Shown here in pieces: positions 1 to 9,935 of a DNA stretch of 64,000 nt. Position 1 is the stretch's first letter. Every line of letters begins with the position of its first letter. Position numbers and translations under genes: made by a program. The notes under the pieces are model-generated. The model searched no databases. It saw nothing but the letters and a program-made list of their open reading frames with translations, and was not told the DNA's origin. The stretch is taken from positions 1,329,305 to 1,393,304 of the forward strand of contig OY770022.1 of NCBI GenBank assembly GCA_963669395.1, written 5' to 3'. The stretch comes from an uncultured Ruegeria sp. Its GTDB lineage: Bacteria > Pseudomonadota > Alphaproteobacteria > Rhodobacterales > Rhodobacteraceae.

Positions 1-1270
1 GGCCAACGATGAACAGGCCGACCGCGCTGCAATAGGCCAGAAACAGGCGATCAGCTTTCGGGTTCGGGGTTGGCTGATACGGCACCGACCGGGCCGACAG
101 CAACGCCACCTGTTTGGACTGAACCATGCGGTCGATCGCAAAAGCCAGGATCGCCGGAATCACCAGAACCACGGACACAACCGCGCCCATCTCAAAGTTC
201 TGCTGGCCGATCACCTGCTTGTAGATATCCACCGCAAGCACGTTGAATTGCCCGCCGATGACTTTAGGCAGGCCAAAATCGGTGATTACCAGATTGAACA
301 CAACAAAGGCTGCAGAGATCAGGCCGTACCTGGCACCCGGAACGGTCACCGTCCAGAACGTGCGCCATGGGGTTGACCGCAGGCTTGCCGCAGCCTCGTA
401 CAGCCGCGCATCCGAAATCGCCAGCGCCGTTGAGATGATCAGGAAGGCATGCGGAAAGGTGAAGAAGACCGAGCCTATCACAATGCCGATCGGACCATAG
501 ATGCTGGCGCCGAACAGCAGTTCTTTGATCATGCCCTGATTACCAAACAGGTATACCAAGGCGATACCCGGCAGCAGCGAGGGAACGAGAATTGGCGCCA
601 TTGCGATCAGGCGAAAGACACCTTTGAACCGCATGCAGCTGCGGTTGAGCGCGTAGGCAAACCAGAAGGCCAGCGTCACGGTGACGATCGTGCTGACAAC
701 CGAAATCCAAAGCGAATTCTTGATCGAATTGAACAGCGCGGGCGTGGAGAAGTAGTTTACAAAGTTATCCAATCCCCTGGACTGGACGGGCCGAAGTTGA
801 ACCCGCCGAAAGGTATTGGAATCCAGCTCGACCCAATCGGTTCCTTCCTGCAAAGTTGATCCGACCAGGAACCGACCGGTATCCGTCGTGTTCCGGATCT
901 GATACATGACCGGGCTGCGGAAACTGAAATCCGGGAAGAAACCTGTAACAGGCAAGCGCCCGTCCGAACCCGTCACAAGATCGGTGTCGGCAAATGCTCC
1001 GGTTTCGCGGTTCAGCGCATCGCCCGACAGGATCGTTCCATCAAAACTCCCTGCGTCATCGCTGACCTGAAACTCGTATTGGGACAGTTCCACCCGATAG
1101 GTGGAAAACGACTTTGAGAGCATCGTGTAAAGCGGCAGCGCCAGCGTCACGATCAGATACAGCACGATGACCATCATGCTTCCGCGCATCAGGATGTCGT
1201 CGCGGCTGAGCTTGGGTTTGATGATTGGGCCGGGGGGCAAAGTGTTACTGTTGGTAGAAGCGGTACTCAT
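1..1270 (-). CDS. 2-aminoethylphosphonate-type ABC transporter permease (partial; runs off the left edge)
   Basis: Manual translation from ATG at 1270 (MSTASTN...DDILMRGSMMVIVLYLIVTLALPLY...GLDNFVNYFSTPAL...DARLYEAAASL...TVPGARYGLISA). Contains an EAA loop and has an ATGA overlap with the ATPase gene. Not in the ORF track because there is no stop in the window. Confidence 0.88.
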   Translation of the reverse strand, partial: MSTASTNSNTLPPGPIIKPKLSRDDILMRGSMMVIVLYLIVTLALPLYTMLSKSFSTYRVELSQYEFQVSDDAGSFDGTILSGDALNRETGAFADTDLVTGSDGRLPVTGFFPDFSFRSPVMYQIRNTTDTGRFLVGSTLQEGTDWVELDSNTFRRVQLRPVQSRGLDNFVNYFSTPALFNSIKNSLWISVVSTIVTVTLAFWFAYALNRSCMRFKGVFRLIAMAPILVPSLLPGIALVYLFGNQGMIKELLFGASIYGPIGIVIGSVFFTFPHAFLIISTALAISDARLYEAAASLRSTPWRTFWTVTVPGARYGLISAAFVVFNLVITDFGLPKVIGGQFNVLAVDIYKQVIGQQNFEMGAVVSVVLVIPAILAFAIDRMVQSKQVALLSARSVPYQPTPNPKADRLFLAYCSAVGLFIVG

Positions 1271-2415
1271 GCCCCGGTCTCCGGTACGTCAAAGGCCATC
1301 AGGCGGTCTTCGGGAAGCTCGATCATCATCGTCCGCCCTTCTGCCAGCTCAAGGCGGCGTACGGCATTGATCGAGAAATCCGCGATCAGCTCCGAAGTGC
1401 CGAACCGCTCATTGCTCAGGCGGCACCGCCAGAACGAACCAAGGAACTCCATCTCGGTGATCAGCACTTCGAAGGCGTTTTCCGGGGTGGTAATTGTATC
1501 CGGCGCACCCGGAGACCGCGCACCTTCTCCATGTGGAATGACATCATCAGGTCGGACAGCAGCTATGACGCGGCTTCCTTTCTGATGCGAATGCCGCGTG
1601 CATTTCAGCACGGACCCGCCCAGTTCTATCGTCTGAGGGTCACCGGCAACTGCCGACAGCTGGTTCATCTCGCCAATGAAATCGGCGACAAACAAGTTCC
1701 TTGGATGGCGGTATATCTCGGTGGGCGATCCCACCTGTTCAATCACGCCATGGTTCATGACCACGATCCGGTCCGCCATGGCCAGGGCCTCTTCCTGGTC
1801 ATGCGTCACCATCACGGTGGTCACGCCCAGCTTGCGTTGCAACTCTTTGATTTCATGCCGCAAATGGACGCGTACTTTTGCATCAAGCGCCGAAAGGGGT
1901 TCGTCCAGAAGCAGCAGACCGGGCTTGGTTGCGATGGCGCGGGCCAAGGCAATCCTTTGCTGCTGCCCACCCGACAACTGTGCCGGATATTTTTTGCCCT
2001 GATCCGGCAGGCCGACGAGATTAAGCAACTCATTCACACGTACAGCGATTTCAGATTTGCTGTGGCCCGAGTTTTCCAGACCAAAGGCAATGTTCTTTTC
2101 AATCGTGAGGTTCGGAAACAGCGCATAGGACTGAAACACGATCCCGAAATCACGCTCGGACGGGGGCAGGTTGGACACGTCCTTGCCGTCCTGCATGACC
2201 GTCCCCTTGGTCTGCAAATCCAGACCGGCGATAGCGCGGAGCAGGGTCGTTTTCCCGCAACCCGACGGGCCCAGAAAACAAACGAATTCGCCATCGTTGA
2301 TTTCCAGCGAAATATCCTTGAGAGCGAGAAAGCTGCCGAACGCCTTCCACAAGTTCTGGATGCTGAGATACAGTTCACCGGGAGGTGTTTTCTGAAGCAC
2401 GGGGGAAGTCCTCAC
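1267..2415 (-). CDS. ABC transporter ATP-binding protein, 2-aminoethylphosphonate (PhnT2) type
   Basis: Walker A GPSGCGKT, signature LSGGQQQR, Walker B LLLDEP, C-terminal TOBE-like region; operon context. Confidence 0.92.
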   Translation of the reverse strand: MRTSPVLQKTPPGELYLSIQNLWKAFGSFLALKDISLEINDGEFVCFLGPSGCGKTTLLRAIAGLDLQTKGTVMQDGKDVSNLPPSERDFGIVFQSYALFPNLTIEKNIAFGLENSGHSKSEIAVRVNELLNLVGLPDQGKKYPAQLSGGQQQRIALARAIATKPGLLLLDEPLSALDAKVRVHLRHEIKELQRKLGVTTVMVTHDQEEALAMADRIVVMNHGVIEQVGSPTEIYRHPRNLFVADFIGEMNQLSAVAGDPQTIELGGSVLKCTRHSHQKGSRVIAAVRPDDVIPHGEGARSPGAPDTITTPENAFEVLITEMEFLGSFWRCRLSNERFGTSELIADFSINAVRRLELAEGRTMMIELPEDRLMAFDVPETGA

Positions 2416-2532
2416 ATCTGCACCTCGGGCATGGCTGATCCGGGCTGGGCATTGCCAGGTGCGCAGGTCACGTTTTTGGGAAAAAGAGAAGGGCGCGCAG
2501 GAGAGGCAAAAGCAACTCTCCTGCTATCGTGT

Positions 2533-3552
2533 TTATTTCGCTTCCGACTTTCCGTCATAGCGAGACTGCCATTCCTTCAGGATTGCCGCACGATTATTCG
2601 CGGCAAACTCAAAATCATTGTCAATCATGGCATCCAGAAGACCCTCTGGGAAGTGCTCAACCGGTTTTGCGATGCCGGGGTAGGCCACAACCGCATAGCC
2701 GGTGTTGTACATTTCGTTGGCTTCCTTGGTGACTGTGAAATCAACCAGTTTCTGAGCGGCTTCCAGATTTGCCGTTCCGGCGACAATTGCGGTGGCTTCC
2801 ATGTCCCAGCCTACGCCTTCGGACGGGACGATAATCTCAAGCGGTGCGCCATCCGCCTTGGACTTGGCACCGCGGAAGGCAAACGAGATACCGATCGGGA
2901 TTTCGCCCGCTGCCGCCAGCTTGCAGGGTTTGGACCCTGAATGCGTATAGCGCGCAATATTTTCGTGCAGCGCGTCCATGTACTCCCAGCCGCCTTCTTC
3001 ACCGAACATTTGCAGCCAGCTTGAAACGTCAAGGAACCCGGTGCCGGACGAGTTCGGGTTCGGCATGATAACCTGATCCTTGTACATCGGGTCAGTGAGG
3101 TCTTTCCACGAGGTGGGTGGCTTCAGCCCGGCCTTTTCGGCCTCGACCGTGTTGTAGCAGACGGATGCAACCCAGGCATCCATGCCAACCCATGCGGGTG
3201 GATTGTCGCCATCGACAAACTTGGGATCCAGGTTCTCGACGCCGGCGGGCGCGTAGGGTTCCAGCATGCCTTCCGATTTGAGAAGTAGCAGCGACGTAGC
3301 CGCCAGCCCCCATACGACGTCTGCCTGGGGGTTGTCCCGCTCAGCCAGCAGTTTGGCGGTGATGATCCCGGTCGAGTCGCGAACCCAGTTGATCTTGATG
3401 TCAGGGTTGCTTTGGTTGAACGTCTCGGCATAGCGAGCCAGATCTTCCGCCTCGACGGCGGTGTACACTGTCAATTCTGTTTCCGATGCCGCAACCGTCG
3501 CGGTCATTGCGCTGACGGCCAGAGCGGCAAGAAATGATGTCTGGTGTTTCAT
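2533..3552 (-). CDS. aepX: 2-aminoethylphosphonate-type ABC transporter substrate-binding protein (AepX/PhnS2-like)
   Basis: Signal peptide and motifs WVRDSTG, MPNPNSSGTG, YTHSGSKPC. Start placed at ATG 3552 behind a GAGG RBS. Confidence 0.82.
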   Translation of the reverse strand: MKHQTSFLAALAVSAMTATVAASETELTVYTAVEAEDLARYAETFNQSNPDIKINWVRDSTGIITAKLLAERDNPQADVVWGLAATSLLLLKSEGMLEPYAPAGVENLDPKFVDGDNPPAWVGMDAWVASVCYNTVEAEKAGLKPPTSWKDLTDPMYKDQVIMPNPNSSGTGFLDVSSWLQMFGEEGGWEYMDALHENIARYTHSGSKPCKLAAAGEIPIGISFAFRGAKSKADGAPLEIIVPSEGVGWDMEATAIVAGTANLEAAQKLVDFTVTKEANEMYNTGYAVVAYPGIAKPVEHFPEGLLDAMIDNDFEFAANNRAAILKEWQSRYDGKSEAK

Positions 3553-3606
3553 TGTTATCCTCTGTTGGTGATTTCTTGACGGGTTCGCCATTCTTGCGCG
3601 GCGTTC

Positions 3607-3635
3607 TATTCAGATTTGTATCAACAGTTTGACAG
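3607..3635 (-). promoter_or_regulatory. Pho-box-like 11-bp periodic repeat
   Basis: Minus strand reads CTGTCAA-ACTG-TTGATAC-AAAT-CTGAATA (7-4-7-4-7) upstream of the phosphonate-binding protein gene. Only the first unit matches CTGTCAT well. Confidence 0.4.
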
Positions 3636-3951
3636 ATAAAAACTTCAAGAAAAATCGATTATATCTTCAACATCATAAGTGCACCCTATGGCAAAGCAGC
3701 TGTGGATTGCCGACGGTTGCGATCAATTCCGGCAACGGAGCGGCAGGGCCTAACCGTTTGAAGCCGCTTATTTTGCATACTTTTGGTGCCGTCCAGTATT
3801 GTCGCCCCCGGCGCGGACCAGAGCCTGAACACAGGCGGGATCGGTATTGTTCCTGCGGCGGTCCGACATCCAGCCGGATCTATGATGAAGATCAGTACTT
3901 CTTTCATGCGTGTTTCCAGGTTCTGCGTCCGAAATCTGCCCTCAGATTTCG

Positions 3952-4791
3952 TTATCTCGCCGTTGCCAAAACCAAGATGCCGAGCGCCACGATTGTCGCC
4001 GCAAGAAGCCTGTTGGATTTGGGCCCTTCGCCAAACCACATGACGCCAATAATCGACGCAAAGATCACGGAACTTTCTCTGAGTGCTGACACCACGCCCA
4101 AAGGCGCAATCGTCTTGGCATACAGCACCAGTCCGTAGGCCAGGCCGGAAATGACGCCGCCCGCCAGACCTGCCCAGACAAAGCGACTGGGCAGTGCCAC
4201 AAGGCGCTGCCATCGGGTCGTGAAGATGAACCCAGCAACAATAATTTCGGCGACGAACAAGGCCGCGATGTATCCCAACGCGTTCTCAGACAGCCGAATG
4301 CCGATACCATCCACAATCGAATAGGACGCAATCATCAGGCCCGTGCCAAGCGCTGCCGCTATGGCGATCCAATTCGTTTGTCTGCCTAACCCGGCAAGGG
4401 ACAGGCACCCGATACCTGCCGAGATGCAGAGTATGCCGACCCATGCGACCATCGAAAGAAGCTCTCCTGCAAACAAAATTGCGCCCAGCGCGACCAGAAC
4501 AGGCGTGATCCCGCGAGAGATGGGGTAAACCATCGACAGGTCGCCATATTTATATGCGGTGTTCAGAAACCAGTAATACCCCCAGTGGATCAGGGTCGAG
4601 CCAACGATAAAGGGAAAAGCCGCCCAAACCGGCAGCCCGAAAAACGGCAACGCAAACAGCGCAGGGACCGCGTGGCCGAGTGATACCAGCCCCAAAACGA
4701 TTGCTTTGTCGGGCGCCCCTTTGACAACCGCATTCCAGAGCGCATGCAAAAAGGCAGCGGTCAAAACGATAAGAAGCGCCGAGGTCGTCAT
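3952..4791 (-). CDS. EamA/DMT family membrane protein (phosphonate-utilisation-associated type)
   Basis: About 10 TM segments; motifs AAFLHALWN, GDLSMVYPISRG, VSALRESSV. Confidence 0.88.
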   Translation of the reverse strand: MTTSALLIVLTAAFLHALWNAVVKGAPDKAIVLGLVSLGHAVPALFALPFFGLPVWAAFPFIVGSTLIHWGYYWFLNTAYKYGDLSMVYPISRGITPVLVALGAILFAGELLSMVAWVGILCISAGIGCLSLAGLGRQTNWIAIAAALGTGLMIASYSIVDGIGIRLSENALGYIAALFVAEIIVAGFIFTTRWQRLVALPSRFVWAGLAGGVISGLAYGLVLYAKTIAPLGVVSALRESSVIFASIIGVMWFGEGPKSNRLLAATIVALGILVLATAR

Positions 4792-5059
4792 TGCGAGCCG
4801 ATGAAATGGTTTGGTTTGTTGGCGTGCATCAGAACTCCGACCTCAATGCGCTGATACGCGCGCGCGTTTTTGCTTGCCAGCGCAAGTGCGTGGCACGCGA
4901 CCGACAGAACCGAACCGGAGGTCTGTTCGTCAAGGACAAGCTGGTCCAATGGCAAACTATCGCAACGCAGAAAGCCGAATTTGGAGGTTTGGTTAGCTTC
5001 GGGCCCGATAACCGAACGGTATTTCATCCAGGTTCATTTCGGCAGAGGCTCATCCAAGA

Positions 5060-7522
5060 CTAGCCGTCCATCTTCGGCCGCTCGCTTTTGGTATCGTACG
5101 GGGCTCGCATATAGGCTGTTGCCGACAACCGGGTTCCGGCAAGGTCGATTTCAAAGGTCCCGTCGCGGATAAAATCGGCCGTTACCGGCCGGGGCGCGTC
5201 CAGTTGGCAAAGTGCAACGGCCGCACCAAGCGTATGGCCATAGGCGGCCGAGCGGACCTCGCCGATTTCGACCCCGTCATACATCACGGCCTCACCACCC
5301 CACAGTTGTGCCGAGCCATCATCAAGCACCAGTTGCACGATGCGTGTTTCCAGGTGATCGGGGTCCTCTTTTGCCGCCAGCAGCGCGTCTTTTCCGATAA
5401 AGCCGCCGGGCTTTTCGAAATCGACCGCAAAACTCAACCCTGCCTGCAACGGTGTGATATCGGGCGTCAACTCTCGGCTCCAGGCGCGGAAACCCTTTTC
5501 CAGGCGCAACCCTTCCAGCGCGTAGTATCCCGCATCGCGGATGCCGAACTCGGCCCCGGCGCGCATCAGATCCTCGTATACGCCAACGGTGAATTCGACC
5601 GGCACCACCAGTTCCCAGCCCAGTTCACCCACATAGGTCATGCGGTTGGCCAGAACCGTGGCATAGCCCAGATCGATTTCCTGATGGGTGGCAAACGGGA
5701 AGGCCGCGTTGGACAGGTCGGCCTTGGTCAGTTTCTTCAGAACCGCGCGGGCTTTCGGCCCCATGACCGCCATAACCGACCAGGCGGCCGTGACATCGGT
5801 CAGGAACACGTGGGCATCCGCGTCGAAATTCTTGCGAATCCAGTCCGCATCATGCACCGCCTGGGCCGAGCCGGTGATCAGAAGGAACTCCTGCGCTTTC
5901 AGGCGCAGCACTGTCAGGTCGGATTCGTACCCGCCGCGTTCGTTCAGCAGACCGGTGTAGACCGTGCCTCCGATGGGGACGTCGACATTTGCCGCGCAAA
6001 TGCGGTTCAACTGTGCACAGGCATCCCGGCCCTGAACCAACAGCTTCGCGAACGAGCTTTGATCGAAGATCGACACGCCCTCGCGGGTGTTCTTGTGCTC
6101 GGCCGCAACTGCGTCATGCCAGTTCTGGCGGCCGAAACTGTATTGAATCTTGGGTGCTTCGCCTTCCGCCGCAAAGAAATTCACCCGCTCCCAGCCCATC
6201 TTTGATCCGAACACAGCATTTTTTGCCGCCAGGCGGTCGTAAAGGGCCGAGCGGCGGAACGGGCGCGCGGTGTCCAGTTCGCGATTGGGCCAGGGCATGG
6301 CATAGTGAAGCCCCAGCGTTTCCTTGACCCGATCGTGCAGCCACGTCGGGTTGTTGTTGAAGTTTGCGAACCGCCGGATATCGACAGCAAACAAGTCCGA
6401 AGTCGGAGCCCCCTCGACAATCCATTCAGCCAAAGCAAGCCCCGCCCCACCAGCGCTGGCAATTCCCATCGAGTTGAACCCGGCCCCCACAAAGAAGTTC
6501 TTCAGTTCGGGTGCCTCGCCCAGAAGGTAGTTGTTGTCGGGGGTGAAGCTTTCAGGCCCGTTATAGAATTTGCGCACGCCGGCGCCGGCCATCTGCGGAA
6601 CCCGGATCAGCGCGTTTTCCAGCAGGATTTCAAACTGGTCCCAATCATCGGGCAGAAGCTGGAAGAAGAACTTGTCGGGGATGCCGTCCATTGCCCATGG
6701 CTTGGCTTCGGGTTCGAACCCGCCCATCACCAGACCGCCGGTTTCCTCTTTGAAATAGATATAGCCGTCCGGGTCGCGCAGCACCGGCAGGCCAGGCTTC
6801 ACGCCTTCGATCTGTTCGGTCACGATGTACATATGCTCGGCCGAATGCAGCGGTACGTTGACGCCGCACATTTTGCCCAGTTGGCGCGCCCACTGACCGC
6901 CGCAGTTCACCACAATCTCGGCTTCGATGGTACCATGGTCGGTCACGACACCGCTGACTGCTCCGTCTTTGGTCAGAATATCGGTAACCTTGATACCTTC
7001 TATGACTTTGGCGCCGCCCACGCGCGCGCCCTTGGCCAGTGACTGTGTCAGATCGGTCGGGTTGGCCTTGCCGTCGCCGGGCATCCACAGCCCACCCTTG
7101 ACGTCATCAACCTGCATCACAGGCCATTTGTCCTGCGCCTCCTGCGGGGTGATGACCTGTACCTCGACCCCCTGCGCGCGGGCTGCGGCCGCCGTGCGCA
7201 GCAGCATTGTCATACGGTCCTCCGTGCGTGCCACGGTAACGGAACCGCATTCCATCCAGCCTGTGGCCAGCCCGGTCTCGGCCTCAAGTTGAGAATACAG
7301 CTCGGTCGAATAGCGGATCAGATTGGTCATGGCAGGCTGGCTGCGCAACTGACCAACCAGACCCGCCGCGTGCCAGGTGGTGCCGCAGTTCAGCTGTCCC
7401 TGTTCCAACACTACCACATCACGATGCCCCATCTTCGTCAGGTGATACGCGACCGAGCAGCCGACAATACCGCCCCCCACAATGACAGTTTGCGCGCTGT
7501 GCGGAAGTTGGGTGCTGGCCAT
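5060..7522 (-). CDS. FAD-dependent oxidoreductase with GcvT folate-binding domain (sarcosine/dimethylglycine dehydrogenase family)
   Basis: GGGIVG dinucleotide fold, TWHAAG covalent-FAD His motif, NGPESFTPD, YVGELGWEL, LRLEKG. Start at 7522 behind GGAG/GAGG. Confidence 0.93.
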   Translation of the reverse strand: MASTQLPHSAQTVIVGGGIVGCSVAYHLTKMGHRDVVVLEQGQLNCGTTWHAAGLVGQLRSQPAMTNLIRYSTELYSQLEAETGLATGWMECGSVTVARTEDRMTMLLRTAAAARAQGVEVQVITPQEAQDKWPVMQVDDVKGGLWMPGDGKANPTDLTQSLAKGARVGGAKVIEGIKVTDILTKDGAVSGVVTDHGTIEAEIVVNCGGQWARQLGKMCGVNVPLHSAEHMYIVTEQIEGVKPGLPVLRDPDGYIYFKEETGGLVMGGFEPEAKPWAMDGIPDKFFFQLLPDDWDQFEILLENALIRVPQMAGAGVRKFYNGPESFTPDNNYLLGEAPELKNFFVGAGFNSMGIASAGGAGLALAEWIVEGAPTSDLFAVDIRRFANFNNNPTWLHDRVKETLGLHYAMPWPNRELDTARPFRRSALYDRLAAKNAVFGSKMGWERVNFFAAEGEAPKIQYSFGRQNWHDAVAAEHKNTREGVSIFDQSSFAKLLVQGRDACAQLNRICAANVDVPIGGTVYTGLLNERGGYESDLTVLRLKAQEFLLITGSAQAVHDADWIRKNFDADAHVFLTDVTAAWSVMAVMGPKARAVLKKLTKADLSNAAFPFATHQEIDLGYATVLANRMTYVGELGWELVVPVEFTVGVYEDLMRAGAEFGIRDAGYYALEGLRLEKGFRAWSRELTPDITPLQAGLSFAVDFEKPGGFIGKDALLAAKEDPDHLETRIVQLVLDDGSAQLWGGEAVMYDGVEIGEVRSAAYGHTLGAAVALCQLDAPRPVTADFIRDGTFEIDLAGTRLSATAYMRAPYDTKSERPKMDG

Positions 7523-7572
7523 TGCCTCGCTCCGTGCAGAAGGAATCGGATCTGCACTCACCTTATCGTTAG

Positions 7573-7588
7573 TTTGCAAAACTTGGCA
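7573..7588. promoter_or_regulatory. Putative DeoR operator, copy 1 (TTTGCAAAACTTGGCA)
   Basis: 14/16 identical to the reverse complement of 8399-8414; lies upstream of the GcvT-family gene. Confidence 0.5.
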
Positions 7589-7608
7589 AATATATTCTTT
7601 TCTTTGCG

Positions 7609-8364
7609 TTATGCCCGTACAATATCCATTGGTTGGGTTTCCAGCGATTCGGAAATGTCCTTGGGCAGTTCACCGTCAACAACAAGGGTCACGTCAAAGG
7701 GCAAAGCTTTCATGGCGATCTGCCCAACCACCCCGAACTTGCTGCTGTCCGCCAAAAGGAAAGGGTGCTGTGCCCGTTCCATCATCATGTGGCGCAAGTT
7801 GGCGCCTTCCAGCGAGAAATAGGTGAGCAAGGCCCGCGCGCTGATCCCGCCAACCCCGACCAGCGCGTATTCCGCGTTATATCTGGAAAGGTGTTCCAGC
7901 GTATCCAGACCCATTGTTGCATTCTCGGAAAAATCCAGCCGTCCGCCCAGCAATGTGATCTCCGCCGCTGCAGGTGTCAGAACCGAGGCAATTGTTAAGT
8001 CATTTGTGTATATCGTTAATTCACGGCGGGTGGCCGCTAAAGCCTGAGCTGCGGCAAGCGTCGTCGACCCATTGTCAATGATCACGCTGGCCCCGTCCGG
8101 GATCGCGCTGGCGACATATGCACCAATACGCTCCTTGCCCACACGGTTGGTTTGGGTGCGATCAGCCATAGGAGGTTCATGCCTGCGCACTCTGGTTGCC
8201 CCGCCACGCACCTGGTTGAGCTTGTTTTCCTGGGCCAACTGCTCGATATCCTTGCGCACGGTTTCCCGTGATACGCCAAGCCGTTCAGTCAGAGAACGAA
8301 TAGAAACCGCAGGCTGGCGCGAAACTTCTTCGAGAATGATTGCATGACGTTCGGATGGCAGCAC
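7609..8364 (-). CDS. DeoR/GlpR family transcriptional regulator
   Basis: HTH VSRETVRKD, DNGSTT, LADSSKFG. Confidence 0.95.
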   Translation of the reverse strand: MLPSERHAIILEEVSRQPAVSIRSLTERLGVSRETVRKDIEQLAQENKLNQVRGGATRVRRHEPPMADRTQTNRVGKERIGAYVASAIPDGASVIIDNGSTTLAAAQALAATRRELTIYTNDLTIASVLTPAAAEITLLGGRLDFSENATMGLDTLEHLSRYNAEYALVGVGGISARALLTYFSLEGANLRHMMMERAQHPFLLADSSKFGVVGQIAMKALPFDVTLVVDGELPKDISESLETQPMDIVRA

Positions 8365-8398
8365 GAGAGACCCTCAATGATCGCATGGGGCTACAGAA

Positions 8399-8414
8399 TG
8401 CCAAATTTCGCAAA
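8399..8414. promoter_or_regulatory. Putative DeoR operator, copy 2 (TGCCAAATTTCGCAAA)
   Basis: Upstream of deoR; matches 7573-7588. Confidence 0.5.
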
Positions 8415-8669
8415 AAAATCCAGCCGGGAGTTGCAAAAGCGACTGCGCGATTTGTTAAAGGGCTTCGGGGTGCGGCGTTCGTGGATCCCGGATAGCTCTC
8501 TGCTGTTCATTGAAACGTGTCGCGATAAGTCAAACGTTCTGTCGCTTGTCACAGCAGTGCCCAGCCAGCCGCGCGGCCGCAACAGCGGACGGTCCCCGCC
8601 AATACGCTTCGTGCGCAATTGGGCGGTCTGACTTCCCTCAATTCAGGGAAAGCCTGCTATTCATGTGTT

Positions 8670-8771
8670 TCAAATACCCGAAATCAATGCGCTCGCTGCT
8701 CCAACAAATCCAGCGCCGGCCACGACGCTTGCGAGTACAATACAAAAAACTTCTAATGCGCTAAGTTTCAT
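8670..8771 (-). CDS. Candidate 33-aa single-TM small protein (MKLSALEVFCIVLASVVAGAGFVGAASALISGI)
   Basis: Manual translation; hydrophobic throughout; followed by hairpin TTCCCT-N6-AGGGAA. Confidence 0.4.
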   Translation of the reverse strand: MKLSALEVFCIVLASVVAGAGFVGAASALISGI

Positions 8772-9073
8772 TTTTCTGCCCTGCCCAAATGCCCCGCTCG
8801 ACTTAAAGCATCTCATGAGATTCAAAAAGAGAGCCTTTGTTGACGCGGCGGAATGCTGCTACAAGCGCGGCGTGTTTTCGCTCAGCAGTGAGTTTTGGTC
8901 ATTTGGATCGGATACCGTTGCGGGTGTCAGAAGCTTGATCTGTAGGGCGCGCGCATCACGACCGTTCGCCCGATTTGACGGATTCCGGCGCAATTTTGTG
9001 ACGCAATTTGCCCCCTGGAATCATGGTCCGGAGCGACGGGCTGGCTCAACCTTGATGCAAGTGATTGATCTTA

Positions 9074-9086
9074 GTGGTAGCGGAGG
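9074..9086 (+). repeat. att-like direct repeat GTGGTAGCGGAGG (displaced tRNA-Met 3' end)
   Basis: Identical to 26018-26030, which covers the tRNA-Met 3' end. Confidence 0.85.
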
Positions 9087-9272
9087 TCCGTCTTGGACAC
9101 AAACCCCACACATTAACCCTCTGTAAAATACGGGTGGCGCAACCTTTGAGCGGGAAACCGGAAGGTCAATTGTCGTAGCGGTACACTGACTGGCGAATTC
9201 GATCAAAAGAATTTGGCCTTCACCGCGTTGTCCTACGTTGAAGGCCGTCGCAATTGCGGCATGGGGAACGTC

Positions 9273-9935
9273 CTACATAGCCTCCAAGGTATGCTCGAGG
9301 CCATTTCGAATGTGATCTTCCAACAACTTCTTGGCCATATCCGCGTCTCTGGCCAATGCGGCATCGAACATGTGTTTGTGTTCTTTGGCTGCTACCTCAC
9401 CTCGATAGGTCAGTACGAGCATCTGGTAGCGAAGATACTTGTCATAGATGATTGAGTGAAGGGATAGAAGATTCTTGGAGTTGCAGGCTGCTATCATCGC
9501 TTGATGAAACTCCGAGTCGTACCTCTTCCAGGTTTCTTTCTCAGAGTCATCTCCTTTGAGAAGCCGTTGCTCCATCAAATGCAGCTTATGATGCGCGGCG
9601 ACCAGGTTCCCCTCCCAATCCGTGTCACCATTCTCGATGGATAACTCCAATGCATGGCACTCCAGCAGGACACGCAGCTCTGATATCTCGATCAGGTCTT
9701 CACGGGAGACCGGTGTAACCAGGAATCCCCGTTGCTCGGGAGCTTCGACAAATCCGTCGCTGGCGAGCCTGTTTAGCGTTTCACGAAGTGTCGAAAGGCT
9801 TGCCGAGTAGCGTTCCTTCAAGGCGTCCAGCTTCAGTTTGGAGCCGGGCTGCAGCTCTCCGAAGATGATGTCCCGCTTGATGCGCTGATAGGTGCTTGCA
9901 CCTATCGTGGACGGCTGTTTCGCCATGCGTTTCAC
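9273..9935 (-). CDS. GntR family (FCD domain) transcriptional regulator
   Basis: wHTH LSTLRETLNRL plus FCD (DSEFHQAM...EH...HI). Confidence 0.93.
   Translation of the reverse strand: MKRMAKQPSTIGASTYQRIKRDIIFGELQPGSKLKLDALKERYSASLSTLRETLNRLASDGFVEAPEQRGFLVTPVSREDLIEISELRVLLECHALELSIENGDTDWEGNLVAAHHKLHLMEQRLLKGDDSEKETWKRYDSEFHQAMIAACNSKNLLSLHSIIYDKYLRYQMLVLTYRGEVAAKEHKHMFDAALARDADMAKKLLEDHIRNGLEHTLEAM

Follow-up and report, generated by a model that had tools for sequence, protein, structure and literature searches.

Does an enzyme of the dimethylglycine dehydrogenase (DMGDH) family, encoded beside a transporter for 2-aminoethylphosphonate (AEP), return N-methylated AEP to the AEP degradation pathway and pass the methyl carbon to folate? 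The question is raised by the left end of a 64,000-nucleotide stretch from an uncultured Ruegeria sp. (GenBank assembly GCA_963669395.1, contig OY770022.1, a single contig of 3.8 Mb; G000:C1:1329305-1393304), called the window below, where open reading frame (ORF) listing and family scans show positions 1-8364 to hold six genes, all on the minus strand (Table 1). An initial annotation, made from the letters of the window, had noted deoR, a DMGDH-like gene, an EamA gene and an AepX-type transporter in the same orientation, all of which we find as described on the minus strand, and had interpreted the DMGDH-like enzyme, a protein of 839 amino acids (aa), as a folate-linked demethylase of methylated AEP. 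Our analysis supports this interpretation. On balance, what can be read from the sequence and its relatives favours the view that the enzyme is a tetrahydrofolate (THF)-coupled N-demethylase, which would convert N-methyl-AEP, and perhaps dimethyl-AEP, into AEP for PhnW. The pairing of deoR with the enzyme gene is genuine and conserved, and as an accessory part of AEP clusters it has not been described so far; its function we infer with moderate confidence.

The initial annotation had further suspected that phn genes might lie past the left edge of the window, and this is where they are. In the 20 kb to the left, a divergently oriented lysR of the kind associated with AEP genes is followed by phnW (556 bits), phnA (485 bits), phnY (757 bits), pbfA (683 bits against a cut-off of 525) and then a Na/Pi cotransporter-like gene, all of them within 9 kb of the edge and the four scored genes above their NCBIfam cut-offs. 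The left 8.4 kb of the window is the right-hand end of a complete PhnW-PhnY-PhnA cluster with PbfA for AEP catabolism, in a block of about 17 kb that extends from deoR to the Na/Pi gene and lies on the minus strand throughout except for lysR. All three transporter subunits score above the NCBIfam equivalog cut-offs and have phnWAY and lysR adjoining, as in AepXVW/PhnS2T2U2 systems; the permease, as a full ORF of 673 aa, reaches 792 bits against TIGR03262 (cut-off 593), its part inside the window alone 381 bits. A matching aepXVW-phnWAY arrangement, with one LysR regulator, has been described in Alphaproteobacteria (Murphy et al. 2021, PMC8316502). From deoR to the Na/Pi gene, the block runs collinear with that of Ruegeria haliotis B1Z28 at 80-85% DNA identity while both flanks differ, and it thus behaves as one patchily distributed unit.

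The enzyme itself has the complete architecture of the DMGDH family, with DAO, FAO_M, GCV_T and GCV_T_C domains that all score above their Pfam cut-offs and span residues 32-829. Its closest solved relatives are rat and human DMGDH (E 1e-150) and the dimethylglycine oxidase (DMGO) of Arthrobacter (E 1e-100), and the identity to DMGDH, about 38-40% over the alignments, already settles the predicted fold. With the start codon used here, the exact protein sequence had no entry in the sequence collection searched. His70, in the covalent-flavin motif TTWHAAG, aligns with rat and human DMGDH and DMGO His48 and is the predicted residue of covalent 8-alpha-histidyl attachment of flavin adenine dinucleotide (FAD), while His249 and Tyr275 align with the catalytic dyad His225/Tyr259 of DMGO, a His/Tyr pair whose role has been described (PMC5082570). 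In the folate domain, Asp506 of a D-x-S motif, YVGELGWE (649-656) and LRLEK (691-695) are present, and the THF site of the GcvT domain is predicted to be intact. His70, the His/Tyr pair, Asp506 and the two longer folate motifs are invariant in all 74 of the 74 aligned orthologs. In a maximum-likelihood tree the orthologs form one clade with a marine and a rhizobial subclade (Shimodaira-Hasegawa-like approximate likelihood ratio test, SH-aLRT, 100; stem 0.3), apart from a 48% identical paralog that is matched in most Ruegeria genomes searched. Fifty-two positions are invariant within the clade and rare elsewhere, including K171 (Gln, His or Asp in the others), C238, S246/A247 just before His249, G272/I274/F276 flanking Tyr275, and Y339, N349 and M371.

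The company that the enzyme keeps in other genomes was assessed in a scan of one genome per species, which gave 80 loci with orthologs 70-89% identical to it. These come from Rhodobacterales and relatives (Ruegeria, Shimia, Aliisedimentitalea, Litoreibacter, Sulfitobacter, Aliiroseovarius, Falsihalocynthiibacter, Thalassobium and Labrenzia/Roseibium) and from Hyphomicrobiales (Aminobacter, Mesorhizobium, Ensifer/Sinorhizobium, Shinella, Phyllobacterium and Pseudochrobactrum). Counting phnW, phnA, phnY, pbfA, aepX or aepW as a core AEP gene when tblastn with the cluster's own proteins gave an identity of at least 60%, we find at least one core gene within 10 kb of the ortholog in 72 of the 80 loci, in more than 20 different upstream and downstream arrangements. 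The initial annotation had proposed examining the neighbourhoods of close homologs for phn/aep linkage, and the outcome, spread over two orders and many gene orders, is that the linkage exists. The regulator gene deoR is present in 76 of the loci and in 68 stands directly upstream of the enzyme gene on the same strand, at most 400 bp away; homologs of the binding protein in the marine loci, including those of Labrenzia and Roseibium, are 80-95% identical. The linkage of the 839-aa enzyme to AEP genes is not a matter of chance. Among the eight loci that have no core gene in range, three are cut by contig ends (L043, L056 and L106) and three (L080, L066 and L081) belong to the Aminobacter type, where a long insert separates the enzyme gene from lysR; the other two, L054 and L119, are considered below.

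The distribution of the enzyme gene is nested within that of phnA. A search of 61 Ruegeria genomes yielded phnA in 20, the present one included; the ortholog (at least 87% identity) occurs in six Ruegeria genomes, all of them phnA-positive, where it lies on the same contig as phnA at a distance of 10-13 kb. Eight phnA-positive Ruegeria genomes are without it, and it occurs in none of the 20 phnA-negative Ruegeria genomes among G001-G024. An even draw of 301 Rhodobacterales genomes contained phnA in 35 and the ortholog in five, from four genera, and again all five carry phnA, with the enzyme gene 4-10 kb from it.

A second group of DAO/GcvT genes in the same genome, in an operon to the left of the AEP block, provides a negative control. 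This operon consists of a divergent LysR regulator, an MttB-family methyltransferase (659 bits), a 262-aa ORF without a family match, two DAO/GcvT proteins, both of 792 aa, and a class-III aminotransferase. The second of these DAO/GcvT proteins has orthologs in 12 sampled genomes, in which phnA is absent, lies about 1-2 Mb off on the same contig or, in one case, is on another contig. Since these orthologs are not linked to phnA, we treat the position of the operon beside the AEP block as a coincidence, and since the control shows no linkage, we take the conserved linkage to be a property of the 839-aa enzyme and not of DAO/GcvT paralogs generally. The operon resembles a chain that would lead from a trimethyl-ammonium compound to a primary amine and on to an aldehyde, for some quaternary amine. 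We considered it as an upstream trimethyl-to-amine chain for AEP and rejected it, as its second DAO/GcvT is not phnA-linked elsewhere.

Besides the core AEP genes, several other neighbours recur around the orthologs: a GbdR-like GlxA/AraC regulator in 24 of the 80 loci, a PbfF-like 2-hydroxyacid dehydrogenase in 10 and a PehA-like hydrolase of the phosphonate-ester/sulfatase family in 8. In Aminobacter and Shinella, a GbcA-like Rieske oxygenase (364 bits against a cut-off of 670), a second DAO/GcvT of a distinct clade and a GbdR-like regulator stand beside the deoR-enzyme unit. Neighbours of this kind belong to the repertoire of methyl-ammonium catabolism and fit an N-methylated substrate, and the Aminobacter and Shinella loci suggest a three-step demethylation of trimethyl-AEP. 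The wider proposal has two parts, that the clade represents an undescribed AEP-forming, THF-dependent N-methyl-AEP demethylase, and that in Aminobacter and Shinella it would take the last step in a chain of a Rieske oxygenase and two DAO/GcvT enzymes from trimethyl-AEP to AEP; we give it an even chance.

A DAO/GcvT protein also adjoins AEP genes in another family, at G031:C90 (L033:7732-11653), where a homolog 55% identical to the enzyme starts 35 bp past the stop of pbfA, with 5 bp between the tblastn matches of the two; this is a true pbfA (672 bits), and the pair adjoins an Opp/Dpp-type ABC transporter. The tree places this homolog with another lineage, so it does not belong to the clade and was not counted as support. 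To judge from this case, the recruitment of DMGDH-like enzymes to aminophosphonate genes may have happened repeatedly.

The reaction that we propose would begin with the oxidation of the N-methyl C-H bond of N-methyl-AEP by the covalent-flavin enzyme, for which N,N-dimethyl-AEP or the 1-hydroxy forms of mono- and dimethyl-AEP are other possible substrates. The iminium or formaldehyde carbon would then pass through the internal cavity to THF on the GcvT domain and yield 5,10-methylene-THF, and the electrons would probably go to electron-transferring flavoprotein, by analogy with the DMGDH family. AEP would be released and transaminated by PhnW, after which PhnY and PhnA would produce acetate and phosphate. 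Given the gap of 29 bp, deoR and the enzyme gene are probably co-transcribed, and DeoR is likely to be the specific regulator of the demethylase unit, which it would probably turn on in response to a methylated phosphonate as the putative effector, apart from the LysR-controlled core genes.

Several observations weigh against such a role. The genome encodes about 14 DAO/GcvT paralogs of roughly 800 aa, and a single adjacency to AEP genes is therefore weak evidence. The clade-only residues are leads from the alignment only, and no more than about one in seven of the phnA-positive sampled Rhodobacterales genomes has the ortholog. L054 and L119 have full flanks without any AEP gene within 10 kb and are apparently real exceptions; in the former (L054:7525-16301) a PehA-like hydrolase, deoR and the enzyme gene are accompanied by a downstream transporter of the betaine/choline/carnitine type (BCCT), which makes this locus the best counter-example to a strictly phosphonate-bound role. 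Finally, AepX has been reported to be highly specific for AEP, in a study in which N-methyl-AEP was not among the ligands tried (PMC8316502).

The main alternative also makes the enzyme a folate-linked N-demethylase, but its substrate would be a methylated amine that has no phosphonate and comes from the same food source as AEP, such as N-methylethanolamine or its phosphate, N-methyltaurine, sarcosine or some other head-group fragment of invertebrate or algal lipids, in which case the co-location would reflect nutrient co-occurrence only. The BCCT transporter and the ester hydrolase of L054, the GbdR-like regulators that accompany the unit in 24 loci and the reported specificity of AepX for unmethylated AEP all point in this direction, and it is the two exceptional loci together with that specificity that keep the explanation alive. 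However, in both samples of genomes the gene is found only where phnA is, within about 13 kb of it, and such close dependence on phnA, across two orders and many rearrangements, would not be expected from a common diet by itself. Nor do ethanolamine or taurine catabolic genes recur in the loci, where the one case is a fused ethanolamine-lyase-like ORF in a single Ensifer locus (L085:12888-15272, Ensifer adhaerens; 794 aa, EutB and EutC, just downstream of the enzyme gene on the opposite strand). We consider this alternative unlikely.

One could also speculate that the enzyme, like PbfC and PbfD, cuts the ethyl-side C-N bond of AEP or N-methyl-AEP to give phosphonoacetaldehyde, with the GcvT domain idle or structural. 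No PbfB/C/D-like gene of the DAO-only type was found in the flanks of the 80 orthologs, nor close to the cluster when whole genomes were searched, five in all (this one, Ensifer adhaerens, Shinella kummerowiae, Litoreibacter meonggei and Aliisedimentitalea scapharcae); the single DAO-only neighbour, from a metagenome-assembled genome of Tateyamaria, is GlpD-like. The 839-aa enzyme thus fills the slot that these FAD enzymes occupy in other AEP clusters, which would suit such a reaction, as would the fact that all known FAD enzymes of AEP clusters yield phosphonoacetaldehyde (PMC10590968). Yet an unused domain could hardly be expected to keep Asp506, YVGELGWE and LRLEK invariant in 74 orthologs, the characterised DAO/GcvT fusions that we considered all take off an N-methyl group, and the presence of phnW in the clusters would make deamination of AEP redundant, so that ethyl-side cleavage appears improbable. 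That the enzyme simply serves choline/betaine catabolism as a common dimethylglycine or sarcosine dehydrogenase, placed beside AEP genes by chance, could be argued from DMGDH as its best solved relative, from the many paralogs in the genome and from the other paralog operon that adjoins the AEP block by apparent coincidence, but this is the least probable explanation of all, given a separate clade (SH-aLRT 100) with invariant residues of its own around the catalytic Tyr, a linkage kept in 72 of 80 loci, and a gene that, in a search of 60 other Ruegeria genomes, did not turn up in 54, whereas it is the 48% identical paralog (G000 381753-384203), with a 47-49% match in most of the Ruegeria genomes searched, that fits a housekeeping role. 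PbfD-like deamination and plain DMGDH activity are both a poor fit to the nested distribution, to the phylogeny and to the conservation of the folate domain.

Table 1 Features of the window and related loci (plain positions are those of the window)
Feature	Location	Strand	Evidence or remarks
deoR, DeoR-family transcriptional regulator	7609-8364	minus	Pfam HTH_DeoR and DeoRC
839-aa DAO/FAO_M/GCV_T/GCV_T_C enzyme	5060-7579	minus	DAO 246 bits, FAO_M 71, GCV_T 253, GCV_T_C 57
EamA/DMT-family membrane protein	3952-4791	minus	Pfam EamA
Periplasmic 2-aminoethylphosphonate binding protein, PhnS2/AepX type	2533-3591	minus	TIGR03261, 517 bits, cut-off 393
ABC transporter ATPase, PhnT2/AepV type	1267-2415	minus	TIGR03265, 525 bits, cut-off 458
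ABC transporter permease, PhnU2/AepW type	1-1270, 3' part beyond left edge	minus	TIGR03262
Sigma-70-like promoter match upstream of deoR	8377-8412	minus	overlaps 14-bp imperfect palindrome 8399-8412
Paralog operon left of AEP block	L001:1291-10735 = G000:C1:1310595-1320039		overlapping stops/starts
Rieske oxygenase and second DAO/GcvT beside deoR-enzyme unit, Aminobacter and Shinella	L067:1408-9100, L096:12554-16468

Within the window, the gap of 29 bp between deoR and the enzyme gene is followed by gaps of 268 bp (enzyme to EamA), 360 bp (EamA to binding protein) and 117 bp (binding protein to ATPase), and the ATPase and permease genes overlap by 4 bp. The membrane protein had been described at the outset as a phosphonate-associated EamA. 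It does belong to the EamA family and recurs in AEP clusters, homologs of at least 45% identity being present in 16 of the 80 ortholog loci, mostly beside pbfA/phnY, but at 139 bits against TIGR03340 ('phosphonate utilization associated membrane protein') it stays under the cut-off of 288 and is not a member of that family, so that its phosphonate label comes from synteny and not from the model. Candidate roles for it are to carry an aminophosphonate or a product out of or into the cell. In R. haliotis, the two gaps on either side of eamA are occupied: a GbdR-like AraC/GlxA regulator stands between the enzyme gene and eamA (L032:11031-12038), where the present genome has a short gap (4792-5059), and a PehA-like hydrolase of the phosphonate-ester/sulfatase family stands between eamA and aepX (L032:12933-14462; here a short gap, 3592-3951). 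The latter may free aminophosphonates from ester-bound forms.

Upstream of deoR, the sigma-70-like match is the sole promoter-like site in positions 1-9300; as 3.4 such sites are expected by chance, it is not significant by itself, and across the terminator and promoter scans the counts were not above those of shuffled sequence. The palindrome that it overlaps could conceivably be an operator. Its exact pattern recurs in one other locus only, also from Ruegeria, and we claim nothing for it as a conserved operator. On the plus strand, between deoR and a GntR gene, there is a 153-aa ORF (window 8665-9126) without a Pfam or NCBIfam match, which lies outside the conserved block; collinearity with R. 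haliotis stops at about position 8414.

AEP and its N-methylated forms rank among the major phosphonates in nature, the lipids and glycans of marine invertebrates are rich in them, and the mineralisation of AEP is a large term in the phosphorus cycle of the ocean. The epithets of many marine carriers of the enzyme gene (haliotis, scapharcae, ascidiaceicola and meonggei) refer to phosphonolipid-rich invertebrates, which is circumstantial at most. To our knowledge, the known accessory enzymes PbfA, PbfB/C/D, PbfF and PbfG each widen the substrate range of the hydrolytic pathway, and none of them uses folate or regenerates AEP. Should the proposed function be correct, it would constitute a new reaction in phosphonate catabolism, tied to one-carbon (C1) metabolism, and a second route into the AEP pathway for marine Roseobacter-group bacteria and soil rhizobia, in which the amine nitrogen stays on the phosphonate while the methyl carbon enters the C1 pool. 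The trimethyl-AEP chain of Aminobacter and Shinella would then be an alternative to TmpAB, and, of the many DMGDH-like paralogs that await assignment in Roseobacter-group bacteria and rhizobia, one clade would gain a function.

In the literature searched, whose coverage excluded most subscription journals, we found no description of a DMGDH-like or GcvT-fusion enzyme in AEP catabolism. Compared with the known systems, the enzyme resembles DMGDH, sarcosine dehydrogenase and Arthrobacter DMGO (PDB 4PAA, 5L46, 1PJ5) in its four-domain architecture, the histidine of TTWHAAG, the His/Tyr dyad and the folate motifs, and presumably also in its chemistry, the oxidation of an N-methyl group with transfer of the carbon to THF. 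It differs from them in its pairing with DeoR, in its position nearly always in or beside AEP clusters (72 of 80 loci) and in the 52 clade-only residues, and its proposed substrate has a phosphonate in place of the carboxylate. The layout of the Aminobacter and Shinella loci is reminiscent of the stepwise demethylation of glycine betaine by a GbcA Rieske oxygenase and by dimethylglycine and sarcosine demethylases under GbdR. However, the companion proteins there score below the equivalog cut-offs (364 against 670; 272 against 480) and are thus relatives of the betaine enzymes and not those enzymes themselves, and the AEP block of the present Ruegeria genome lacks them.

TmpA and TmpB also handle an N-methylated AEP, namely N,N,N-trimethyl-AEP, which has so far been found to be degraded only by these two iron-dependent oxygenases (PMC10590968). 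Unlike the reaction proposed here, theirs involves no demethylation, but cuts the C-P bond and leaves glycine betaine (as summarised in PMC10590968). The tmpA/tmpB families were not encountered among the block genes scanned, and no genome-wide search was aimed at them.

A functional parallel is offered by PbfB/C/D, accessory PF01266 flavoenzymes of phnWX or phnWYA clusters with a patchy, cluster-bound distribution, which extend the pathway to N-methyl-AEP (PMC10590968); PbfF and PbfG/PhpC were added in later papers. N-methyl-AEP occurs frequently in nature, at levels that can come close to those of AEP, and PhnW does not accept it as a substrate; the laboratory that described PbfB/C/D has also made the substrates that an assay would need (PMC10590968). 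As to AEP itself, the AepX of Stappia binds it with a dissociation constant of 23 nM (PMC8316502). The 839-aa enzyme is, like PbfB/C/D, encoded in a phnWYA cluster, but whereas these consist of a single DAO domain with non-covalent FAD, without FAO_M or GcvT domains, and are only 20-31% identical to sarcosine dehydrogenase-type enzymes (PMC10590968), the present enzyme has both FAO_M and GcvT domains; the view that known routes for methylated AEP use small FAD oxidases or TmpAB and not a GcvT fusion agrees with the literature searched. The two would also differ in the bond that is cut. PbfC and PbfD cleave the ethyl-side C-N bond and oxidise N-methyl-AEP to phosphonoacetaldehyde and methylamine, while formaldehyde was checked for and not formed (Zangelmi et al. 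2023, PMC10590968). The enzyme described here would instead give AEP and methylene-THF, and would therefore need PhnW downstream while keeping both the nitrogen and the C1 unit.

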